From Minisyncoccota bacterium (GTDB lineage: Bacteria > Patescibacteriota > Minisyncoccia > Phycocordibacterales > PALSA-1337), in contig JBAYFW010000001.1 in assembly GCA_041667005.1 (NCBI GenBank), positions 1 through 25,847 on the forward strand: a stretch of DNA of 25,847 bases, in the 5' to 3' direction. Positions within the stretch are counted from its first letter, which is position 1. Every line of letters starts with the position of its first letter. Below, piece by piece: positions 1-1,380 of this stretch. The notes below the pieces were generated by a model that worked only from the letters and a program-made list of their open reading frames with translations, was not told where the DNA came from and made no database searches. A program made the translations under genes and the position numbers.

Positions 1-1380
1 ATAGTTCTGGAAAGTGATCGAAGCGTAAGTTCGCGATTCTTGCTGAACCGAGACGCCTTCTTTGGCCTCAATAGCCTGATGAAGGCCATCGGACCAGCGG
101 CGACCAGGCTGCAAACGGCCGGTGAACTCGTCGACAATGACGATCTCATTGCCTTTAACAACATATTCCTTATCGCGATGATAGAGTGCGGTCGCTTTGA
201 TGGCTGTCTCCAGATGGTGAACCGACTTTATACCCTTATCGGTGTAAATATTGTCTATGCCCAAAATCTTCTCAGCTTTGCTGATGCCAGCTGCCGTCAG
301 AGAAATAGAGCGATGCTTTTCCTCGACAATATAATCTTCCTCCACCTTGAATGATCGGACCATAGAGGCAAACTGCCGATATATGCTTTCGGCATCTTTG
401 ACCGGAGCGGAAATTATGAGAGGTGTCCGGGCTTCGTCGATCAAGATTGAGTCGATCTCATCGACAATGGCATAGTTGAAATCACGCTGGCGCAAGCGGG
501 CCGGCTCATATTCCAGATTATCACGCAGATAATCAAAACCGAATTCATTATTGGTTCCGTAAGTTATGTCAGCCCTGTAGGCTTCTGGTCGAGAAACTGG
601 CCGAAGAAATTCATGAACCACTTTGAAAGCACCAATGGAGTCGCGTTCTTTATCCAACGGGTCTGTTGTGCCTTTTCCTCTTGCATTGTCATTCCCGCGA
701 AGGCGGGAATCCAGTGTCTGGCCACTTAATCCAGAATCCTTGGTTTGATCCTGGATTCCCGCCTTCGCGGGAATGACACGATCACGATGTTCCGGATCAT
801 ATACAAAGGAAGACTCATGATTGATCACACTCACCGAGAGACCAAGAGCAGCATAGATCTGACCCATCCAGACGGCATCTCGGCGAGAGAGATAATCATT
901 AACGGTTACAATATGAACACCTTTGCCGGAAAGAGCGTTCAAATATGCCGGTAAAGTCGCCACCAAAGTTTTACCTTCACCGGTCCTCATCTCGGCAATA
1001 GCACCGGAATGGAGAACCATGCCGCCCAGAAGCTGGACATCGAAATGCCGCTGACCCAAAGTCCGCCTGGCCGCTTCCCGAACCACGGCGAACGCCTCCG
1101 GCAAGATCTCGCTTAAGGCTTTCTCATAGTCAGAATCGGATTTAGAGGAATCATTAAAACTCTCGCTTTGCTCTACTTTCAAATCTCCAATCTCTAATCT
1201 CGATTCTCTTACTCCCAGCTTCTTTCTAAATTCCGCTGTTTTCGCTTTCAGTTGTTCATCACTTAAAGCCTTAATAGCCGCTTCAAAAGCGTTAATTTTG
1301 GAAACAATCGGGGCGAATTTCTTCAAGCTCCCCGTTGGTGCCGAACCGTTGAATTTGCCTAGAAATGACAGGAAAGACAT
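1..1380 (-). CDS. secA: Preprotein translocase ATPase SecA, N-terminal 460 codons (runs off the left edge)
   Basis: Hand translation from ATG at 1380 is open to base 1: MSFLSFLGK..., [28 protein letters not shown], Walker [40 protein letters not shown], Walker [57 protein letters not shown]. Confidence 0.98.
687..778. repeat. REP/RPE-like palindromic element inserted in frame in secA
   Basis: Perfect 28-bp inverted repeats TGTCATTCCCGCGAAGGCGGGAATCCAG (687-714) and its reverse complement (751-778), with a 36-bp spacer. Each arm has an internal 8-bp stem ATTCCCGC-GAAG-GCGGGAAT. It encodes VIPAKAGIQ...LDSRLRGND in SecA. Confidence 0.93.
1171..1212. repeat. Six degenerate in-phase heptamers (consensus CTCTAAT) inside secA
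   Basis: ctctact ttcaaat ctccaat ctctaat ctcgatt ctcttac; encodes [14 protein letters not shown]. Confidence 0.65.

Follow-up and report, generated by a model that had tools for sequence, protein, structure and literature searches.

The 25.8-kb window analysed here is the entire contig C1 of G000, a metagenome-assembled genome (MAG) of 0.89 Mb in 98 contigs that is 91.5% complete (genomes and contigs are denoted throughout by G and C numbers). At positions 687–778, within the gene for the essential ATPase SecA, it contains a palindromic element that is divisible by three in length and stop-free, so that secA stays open. This element is very probably a miniature derivative of a mobile unit that consists of an arm, a small GIY-YIG nuclease gene and an inverted arm; the derivative would have been inserted in frame in a SecA loop and tolerated there as an extra peptide. 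A preliminary description of this DNA presented the palindrome as selfish DNA that creates new protein sequence in an essential gene. Both that observation and its interpretation are supported: the case appears to represent a phenomenon of the type of the Rickettsia palindromic elements (RPEs) in a genus of the candidate phyla radiation (CPR), carried by an element of the NTS/Ssn type.

The secA gene occupies the beginning of the window. The minus-strand frame 1380..1 encodes 460 amino acids without interruption and runs off the contig start (neither the strand nor the truncation was mentioned in the preliminary description). A Pfam search identifies the domains SecA_DEAD (2.5e-105) and SecA_PP_bind (6e-40), and the top solved relative is SecA from Thermotoga maritima (E 7e-117). 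The remainder of the gene is located at the end of contig C51, the last 10 bases of which are the first 10 bases of C1; no second copy of secA is present in the G000 assembly, i.e., secA is a single-copy gene. The named relatives of the HisS and GIY-YIG proteins discussed below come from Candidatus Paceibacterota, Parcubacteria, Taylorbacteria and the “Patescibacteria group”, which suggests that the host is a CPR bacterium of the Paceibacteria type. The features of the window that are relevant here are the following.

1..1380, minus strand: N-terminal 460 codons of secA, comprising the first nucleotide-binding domain (NBD1) and the preprotein cross-linking domain (translation, Pfam).
889..909, minus strand (aa 158–164): SecA motif VTVNDYL, the upstream anchor, invariant in 22 aligned sequences.
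631..795, minus strand (aa 196–250): hypervariable NBD1 loop between F-x-Y-D and A-F-K-V, the tolerant host site (loop lengths in relatives, AlphaFold2).
687..778, no strand: palindromic element TGTCA...TGACA (repeat search and translation).
687..714, no strand: left arm, 28 nt in window orientation, matching the NTS consensus CGTCATTCCCGCGMAVGCGGGAATCYRG except for the first base.
691..710, no strand: intra-arm hairpin ATTCCCGC-GAAG-GCGGGAAT with an 8-bp stem (repeat search and covariation).
715..750, no strand: variable centre, which codes for 12 residues on the coding strand (centres in G000 are ~65% identical).
751..778, no strand: right arm, a perfect reverse complement of the left arm (repeat search).
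755..774, no strand: intra-arm hairpin of the right arm, 8 bp (repeat search and covariation).
526..564, minus strand (aa 273–285): 13-residue SecA motif, the downstream anchor (translation and alignment).

The two arms are 100% complementary at a spacing of 36 nt, and the 20-mer core of the arm occurs twice in the window and not once in 100 shuffles. The 90 nt from GTC to GAC (688–777) correspond to amino acids 202–231 of SecA, 30 residues of the form VIPAKAGIQ...LDSRLRGND; in-gene copies of this length share the pattern T-x-x-S-G-x-S/N-G in the centre. The perfect 28-bp inverted arms with a hairpin in each had been noticed in the preliminary description and are borne out, and its reading of the 90 bp as 30 codons of an unbroken secA frame, between VTVNDYL and the 13-residue motif, agrees exactly with the translation.

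Alignment of SecA with relatives, a check that the preliminary description had proposed, reveals the empty site. Among 33 SecA sequences from the genus and the order, the loop between F-x-Y-D and A-F-K-V ranges from 14 (e.g., PKHTDLDKTRDETG) to 81 residues, and subtraction of the 30 element residues from the loop of G000 leaves 25, which is a typical length. Same-genus orthologues exist without the peptide, the shortest of their loops consisting of 14 residues; a peptide shared with relatives would have spoken against an insertion. The loop extension as a whole is common to T. maritima SecA and is missing from SecA of Escherichia coli and Bacillus subtilis, which align in two pieces. Empty sites are also found for TopA, HisS and DnaG, the orthologues of which in five relatives lack the segment and align cleanly in the flanks. 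Judging from these alignments, the element is a true insertion in SecA, and the loop in which it landed was already extended, as originally proposed, given that the hypervariable loop occurs in relatives without the peptide. An AlphaFold2 model of the truncated SecA, built from 22 sequences with a mean pLDDT of only 62, served only to show predicted disorder: amino acids 202–255 have pLDDT below 50 and no secondary structure and are placed between strands 191–194 and 259–262. The insert thus maps, in the model, to a stretch that looks as a surface loop would, and is predicted to be disordered. At the DNA level, the long SecA loops of relatives align significantly with the element only in the case of G020, which is a real copy; the loop of G009 is marginal (score 37 vs a shuffle maximum of 34), and that of G005 yields no significant alignment, though its peptide IIP...SGL...AGND is suggestive.

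The preliminary description understated the case, as secA is one of seven essential genes in G000 with an in-frame insertion of this kind. The search for the arm with at most two mismatches gives 37 matches in G000 (0 for the reversed control); 15 elements are paired and 8 consist of a solo or degenerate arm, about 23 elements altogether. This is a dispersed multi-copy palindrome of the RPE-like class, and the assignment to a repeat family of the repetitive extragenic palindromic (REP) or dRS3 type stands. A frame-agnostic scan places 7 of the 15 paired elements in long open reading frames (ORFs), all in one common frame and with a length of 84 or 90 nt each, which provides the genome-wide copy count and in-frame fraction suggested as a follow-up. 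The seven host proteins are SecA, DnaG (primase), UvrA, TopA (topoisomerase I), PolA (DNA polymerase I), DnaE (DNA polymerase III alpha subunit) and HisS (histidyl-tRNA synthetase); in each, the segment is an in-frame addition to an otherwise conserved ORF, and orthologues with an empty site are seen for SecA, TopA, HisS and DnaG. The 8 intergenic pairs measure 85, 86, 87, 89, 90, 90, 185 and 191 nt. Two of the three frames are open across the arms, and the third contains a TGA that derives from AATGAC, so that the presence of 7 of 7 copies in one of the two arm-open frames has a binomial p = 0.016; in the reverse orientation, most copies contain a stop in the same frame. No essential gene split by an out-of-frame copy is seen in G000. 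An eighth copy open in frame 1, in a 137-aa ORF on C49, is probably spurious.

Several copies in G000 depart from the common form. Hybrid or interrupted arms are found at C20:114-236, C61:2521-2640 and C91:2535-2645; those on C20 and C61 combine half of the usual arm with a GTCA-type hairpin of another sequence (GTCATTTACCGTCCTCGGC...GCCGAGGATAAAC), an indication of a second family of Ssn-related motifs, and the arm on C91 contains a 26-nt insertion in the hairpin loop, similar to the nested insertion present in both arms of the database HisS protein P0123. The two long variants, C19:3978-4162 (185 nt) and C30:7784-7974 (191 nt), are both intergenic and have AT-rich CAAAG / CTTTG inverted repeats in their centres. 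The locus C31:2122-2147 is a collapsed form, GTCATTCCCGC-CTTC-GCGGGAATGAC, a single hairpin that carries both element ends and may be an excision or deletion product. Intergenic copies (on C2, C12, C19, C31, C49, C64 and C94) have additional outer sequence in common (...TTAGTTGTG ahead of the element, CACAACTAAAnAACT behind it), as would be expected if a longer composite palindrome existed outside genes.

Among 93 genomes of the genus, 34 contain arms and 59 have none. Bursts are observed in G068 (100 arms), G074 (95), G020 (81), G085 (70), G099 (47), G000 (37) and G010 (31). A peptide search detects at least 45 in-frame copies in ORFs of at least 300 aa, in nine genomes including G000. Examination of 17 other host ORFs and of the SecA locus of G020 shows that the hosts elsewhere include SecA (in G074, G069 and G086, and twice in G020), LeuRS (three genomes), TopA (twice in G020) and PolA or the 5'-3' exonuclease (in G068 and twice in G020), along with UvrB, an AddA-like helicase-nuclease, PheT, FtsK, RecJ, LepA, a P-type ATPase and one unassigned protein. 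Database HisS proteins that are 77–78% identical to HisS of G000 contain element-derived sequence at the same loop; in one of these the left arm is read in the other open frame, and another has extra insertions inside both arm loops.

The SecA loop itself is occupied in five genomes (G000, G074, G086, G020 and G069), with the element starting six residues after Y-D in G000, G074 and G086, 11 residues after it in G020 and 19 in G069. In a SecA tree constructed without the loop, the carriers are scattered and imply 4 changes, but resolution is poor: well-supported branches force only 1, and the tree is compatible with a single origin. The centres of the elements, in turn, group by genome and not by host gene. 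For example, the SecA centre of G020 is 100% identical to that of the RecJ copy, 94% to that of a 5'-3' exonuclease copy and 91% to that of the second SecA copy in the same genome; the LeuS and UvrB copies of G074 are 91% identical; and the nearest centres to that in SecA of G000 are those of its own DnaE and DnaG copies (70–72%). The SecA loop therefore seems to have received its element, or had it replaced, on separate occasions, with coding-competent subfamilies passing between the genes of one genome. Thus, comparison of the centres argues for repeated independent or replaced copies in this loop.

The arm matches the Neisseria NTS/dRS3 consensus CGTCATTCCCGCGMAVGCGGGAATCYRG at 27 of 28 positions (consensus from PMC11893778), and the SRM search pattern of the same study finds 36 sites in G000. 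The NTS, which includes the classical dRS3 repeat, is the target that the small GIY-YIG nuclease SsnA binds and cuts, at the hairpin, as single-stranded DNA (ssDNA) (Nat Commun 2025, PMC11893778); the arrangement NTS-ssnA-NTS resembles an insertion sequence, and related motifs are plentiful in Rickettsia, Wolbachia and others, with Patescibacteria unmentioned (PMC11893778). The exact 28-mer arm is present at no fewer than 118 loci, in Nitrospirota, Chloroflexota, Planctomycetota, Gemmatimonadota, many Proteobacteria, a Rickettsia endosymbiont and several CPR groups, in line with the kinship to Neisseria dRS3-like and Rickettsia repeats that was recognised from the outset. A GIY-YIG homologue is located within 500 nt of 6 of these 118 cross-phylum loci. 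Of the 56 paired elements among them, only one (L108, 84 nt) has the look of a consistent insertion in frame; the remaining ORFs that span an element are probably due to chance, given that the frame changes between the arms and that the contigs are mostly of the Proteobacteria type.

A full-length unit is found in relatives of G000. On contig C1 of G068, two inverted arms 356 nt apart surround a 96-aa GIY-YIG ORF (Pfam GIY-YIG, 1e-18), and the subterminal sequences CCAGGATATTACCA / TGGTAATATCCTGG of this unit match those at the inner ends of its miniature counterparts in G000. Further arm-flanked GIY-YIG genes are present on C3 of G068 and C3 of G010, so that in these two relatives a small GIY-YIG gene lies between inverted repeats of the NTS/SRM type. 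Given the matching arms and inner ends, the 84–90-nt elements can be read as internally deleted derivatives of such a unit. Close homologues of the flanked gene are encoded in 4 of the 8 genomes with at least 20 arms and in 5 of the 85 others (Fisher p 0.0025, for relatives that are not independent and MAGs that are incomplete). The protein belongs to a large family, well conserved among phyla, with more than 7,900 database members at E ≤1e-10, of which the best 120 listed are 68–91% identical. For the G068 protein, NCBIfam gives a sub-threshold match to a group I intron endonuclease, and the closest match of known structure is UPF0213 BH0048 (E 5e-4); neither NCBIfam nor the PDB yields a specific family.

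Conservation of the elements is concentrated in the arms. Among the copies of G000, arm identity is 95–96% vs 64–66% in the centre, and among 96 distinct arm variants 6 of the 8 stem pairs show two-sided compensatory changes (e.g., ATCCCCGC/GCGGGGAT and ACCCCCGC/GCGGGGGT in the PolA copy), with 56 compensatory cells vs a mean of 9.7 and a maximum of 23 in 1000 shuffles. This is the hairpin covariation characteristic of NTS/SRM, and it suggests that the conserved unit is the small hairpin within each arm, as in NTS, rather than the long stem between the arms. The pattern points to selection or homogenisation acting on the arm hairpins, beyond recency alone, and perfect symmetry in SecA alone is therefore poor evidence of recency. 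In the preliminary description, the symmetry was attributed to either recent insertion or selection; constraint or homogenisation accounts for the covariation and the excess of arm over centre conservation better than recency alone.

The same evidence is compatible with retention of the arms for a function in the cell. The arms might mark essential genes for Ssn-type cutting of incoming ssDNA and so limit allelic replacement in natural transformation, or else they might tune mRNA stability or translation through the stem and RNase III. In Neisseria, SsnA together with NTS lowers the integration of NTS-bearing DNA about 5-fold (PMC11893778). The transcript of the secA element is predicted to fold into a perfect 28-bp stem (−64 kcal/mol, z −9.8), and RNase III is encoded in G000. 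The patchy distribution argues against such a role: the 59 armless genomes dispense with it, and the orthologues work without an arm. No cognate nuclease is found in the G000 assembly, and copy bursts and identical centres in unrelated genes resemble transposition. A cellular role, which would be compatible with a mobile origin of the element, is considered to have a rather low but appreciable probability.

With respect to the insertion site, T precedes GTCA and A succeeds TGAC in all 27 in-gene copies examined and in intergenic copies as well, the base after that A being mostly A or C. No direct duplication of the target is found at the copies examined. The flanks, of the form nT-GTCA...TGAC-An, in which the base two before GTCA is never A in the 27 copies, show that the TA duplication is absent, and an IS630/Tc1-type miniature inverted-repeat transposable element (MITE) is rejected on these grounds.

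The absence of a visible target-site duplication is also what is observed for ssDNA transposition of the IS200/IS605 type, and the in-frame insertions could be REPIN-type doublets moved by a REP-associated tyrosine transposase (RAYT, a Y1 transposase), with the GIY-YIG gene as a passenger or a secondary user of the hairpin. Two inverted REP-like hairpins close together are by definition a REPIN, and Bertels and Rainey assigned the Neisseria ATTCCCGCGCAGGCGGGAATC REPINs to a Group 2 RAYT (bioRxiv 10.1101/2021.07.10.451892). G000 encodes three Y1_Tnp proteins of the IS200/RAYT type (C56:1329-1691, C9:10522-10794 and C63:5576-5836), but none of the three contigs contains an arm, so that the repeat-flanked RAYT envisaged in the preliminary description does not materialise, and in relatives the arms flank a GIY-YIG gene instead, in four instances. 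Mobilisation by a RAYT hence appears unlikely.

Several copies are accompanied by partial direct duplications of the element end, 9–18 nt in length and 5–45 nt outside the element, within the host ORF. These are found in DnaG, UvrA and DnaE of G000 (e.g., C4:16071-16088 and C11:15499-15513), in SecA of G069 (L192), in CopA of G085 (L194) and in PheT of G074 (L199), and yield peptides such as AVIPAKT... ahead of VIPAKAGIQ or GNDKVNGNDKV behind the element. The end duplications and the collapsed form on C31 may have been left behind by recurrent insertion and loss or by hairpin slippage.

All in-gene copies have a length divisible by three and no stop in the frame of their host, in each instance a single-copy essential gene. 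Removal or bypass of the segment would demand neither of these two features, a strong though indirect argument for translation. The segment would be missing from mature SecA if it were cut from the mRNA, skipped by the ribosome or removed by protein splicing. Ribosome hopping is known from T4 gene 60 and the yeast mitochondrial byp elements, and a very stable hairpin does reside within the coding region here. However, there are no matching take-off and landing codons (the flanking codons differ) and no stop after the upstream codon, and the 30 residues are too few for an intein, contain no intein motifs and match no domain. Coupled with the lack of essential genes seen split by out-of-frame copies, these features make removal highly improbable, and the bypass, intein and intron readings are dismissed on account of the stop-free frame, the unmatched flanking codons and the missing intein motifs.

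An assembly artefact, i.e., an abundant metagenomic repeat misthreaded into secA of a 98-contig MAG, has a negligible probability. In its favour, contig depths add up to about 25,000 over the arms vs about 8 on either side in secA, and the repeat interrupts the Logan contigs. On the other hand, the same insertion recurs in independently assembled genomes (four others have the element in the same SecA loop, at the identical position in G000, G074 and G086, and database HisS proteins contain it at the site occupied in G000), and the insert measures exactly 30 codons and is in frame. In addition, a Logan contig of X1, probably the source run, with a depth of about 8 like the flanks, bridges 539–712 from unique secA sequence into the left arm without a mismatch, and no joint that skips the entire element is among the Logan contigs listed.

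The explanation best compatible with these observations remains the miniature derivative of an arm/GIY-YIG/arm unit, and the following scenario can be proposed. The 90-nt segment would be a non-autonomous miniature of a unit built from an NTS-type arm, a small Ssn-like GIY-YIG gene and an inverted arm, a copy of which presumably entered between T and A in the hypervariable surface loop of SecA NBD1; mobilisation by the GIY-YIG protein would proceed through ssDNA. The subfamily involved seems to be defined by a length divisible by three and an open frame in one frame and one orientation, and its copy in secA most likely reaches the protein, by way of transcription and translation, as an additional loop of 30 hydrophilic, disordered residues that SecA tolerates, possibly with a neutral effect. 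Selection would purge insertions located elsewhere, in the stop-carrying frame or in the stop-containing orientation, and the survivors would be the in-frame copies found where loops of large essential proteins are tolerant. Near-invariance of the arms would be maintained at the level of the DNA (or RNA) hairpin, presumably as recognition sites of the cognate nuclease.

Several points weigh against this scenario. The copies in other genomes were found with a peptide query of one frame, so that the frame bias is shown in G000 only. The arm-flanked GIY-YIG gene, for which the preliminary description suggested looking nearby, exists in G068 and G010, but a close copy is absent from the G000 assembly, where the only two small GIY-YIG genes are unflanked and have 37–40% identity to the G068-type gene; the high-copy genomes G020 and G085 (MAGs 84–92% complete) likewise have no GIY-YIG gene of the flanked type. 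We know of no demonstration of how Ssn-type units move. The right junction of the secA element is not among the Logan pieces listed, and of the assembly check foreseen in the preliminary description only the part that concerns the left junction thus has independent support. No RNA runs that contain the locus were found, and a 28-bp RNA stem in a cell with RNase III could impose a cost on expression of an essential gene.

Some further observations concern the locus and its surroundings. A heptamer-like repeat (ATTAGAG / CTCTAAT units) occupies 1140–1215 within the region for the N-terminus of SecA and recurs at 2840–2874, in the intergenic region upstream of the next gene. In the single-contig relative G016 (C1:852789-854022), the SecA match is divided among several short open frames that TAA and TGA stops separate, which may reflect a broken gene or consensus errors of a long-read assembly. 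Two sequencing runs (X1 and X2), both of them groundwater metagenomes, contain the locus, and the 28-mer of window region 674–809 is among the most abundant sequences of both.

Colonisation of essential genes by in-frame palindromes has so far been treated as nearly a peculiarity of Rickettsia, and a 2024 review regarded such coding insertion outside Rickettsia as merely conceivable (PMC10969869). No account of this peptide, or of coding MITEs in CPR, was found in the literature, consistent with the claim of the preliminary description that the insertion lies outside the usual lineages, here in a CPR host of the Paceibacteria type. The present observations extend RPE-like behaviour to an unrelated uncultivated CPR lineage and to more than 15 housekeeping proteins, with the same loops hit repeatedly, and tie it to a defined type of element. 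The GIY-YIG nuclease becomes a concrete candidate for the long-unknown mobilising activity behind coding palindromes, and a testable route emerges for the origin of new surface loops in essential proteins. For genome annotation, peptides of the type VIPAKAGIQ...LDSRLRGND in CPR proteins should be regarded as repeat-derived. A broader and more speculative possibility is that coding-competent Ssn-type subfamilies use tolerant loops as safe harbours in compact CPR genomes and are a recurrent source of lineage-specific loop insertions, the arms remaining intact while the cognate nuclease is present in the population and then decaying into ordinary loop sequence. The range of SecA loop lengths (14–81 residues), the five occupied genomes, the end duplications and the weak DNA similarity in G009 are consistent with this tentative idea.

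Among known systems, the closest in behaviour are the RPEs, which were described by Ogata et al. in 2000 and 2002 according to the review PMC10969869. According to that review, RPEs are likewise palindromic miniatures present in many copies, which occupy in-frame sites in unrelated housekeeping genes of a bacterium with a small genome and a host-dependent lifestyle, add a peptide at positions compatible with the fold and comprise coding-competent subfamilies that move from gene to gene, but are about 150 bp long, compared with 84–90 nt here. They also differ in the phylum, here of the CPR/Paceibacteria type, and in that the elements described here have an autonomous-looking partner, the arm-flanked GIY-YIG gene, in relatives. 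The likeness is one of behavioural class, the only link in sequence being the exact 28-mer on the contig of a Rickettsia endosymbiont. In sequence, the element is closest to the Neisseria NTS/Ssn system, with which it shares 27 of 28 consensus positions, the same 8-bp hairpin and the order of arm, gene and inverted arm, in which the gene encodes a single-domain GIY-YIG protein of ~96 aa. It is distinguished by the first base of the arm, T instead of the C reported to be important for SsnA (PMC11893778), and by location, since only 2% of NTS lie within genes in N. meningitidis (PMC11893778), compared with G000, where 7 of the 15 paired elements occupy essential genes in frame. REPIN-RAYT systems are similar in the inverted doublets of hairpin REPs, the same Neisseria core and copy bursts that vary between close relatives (bioRxiv 10.1101/2021.07.10.451892), but REPINs are described as extragenic in the same source, and no arm-flanked RAYT is found here. 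Finally, the coding palindromes in mitochondria of Nematomorpha, as reported in PMC6649704, are also long perfect inverted repeats in coding sequence with both arms translated; these, however, reside in organelle genes, have arms of up to 284 bp and form no dispersed mobile family with a nuclease partner.

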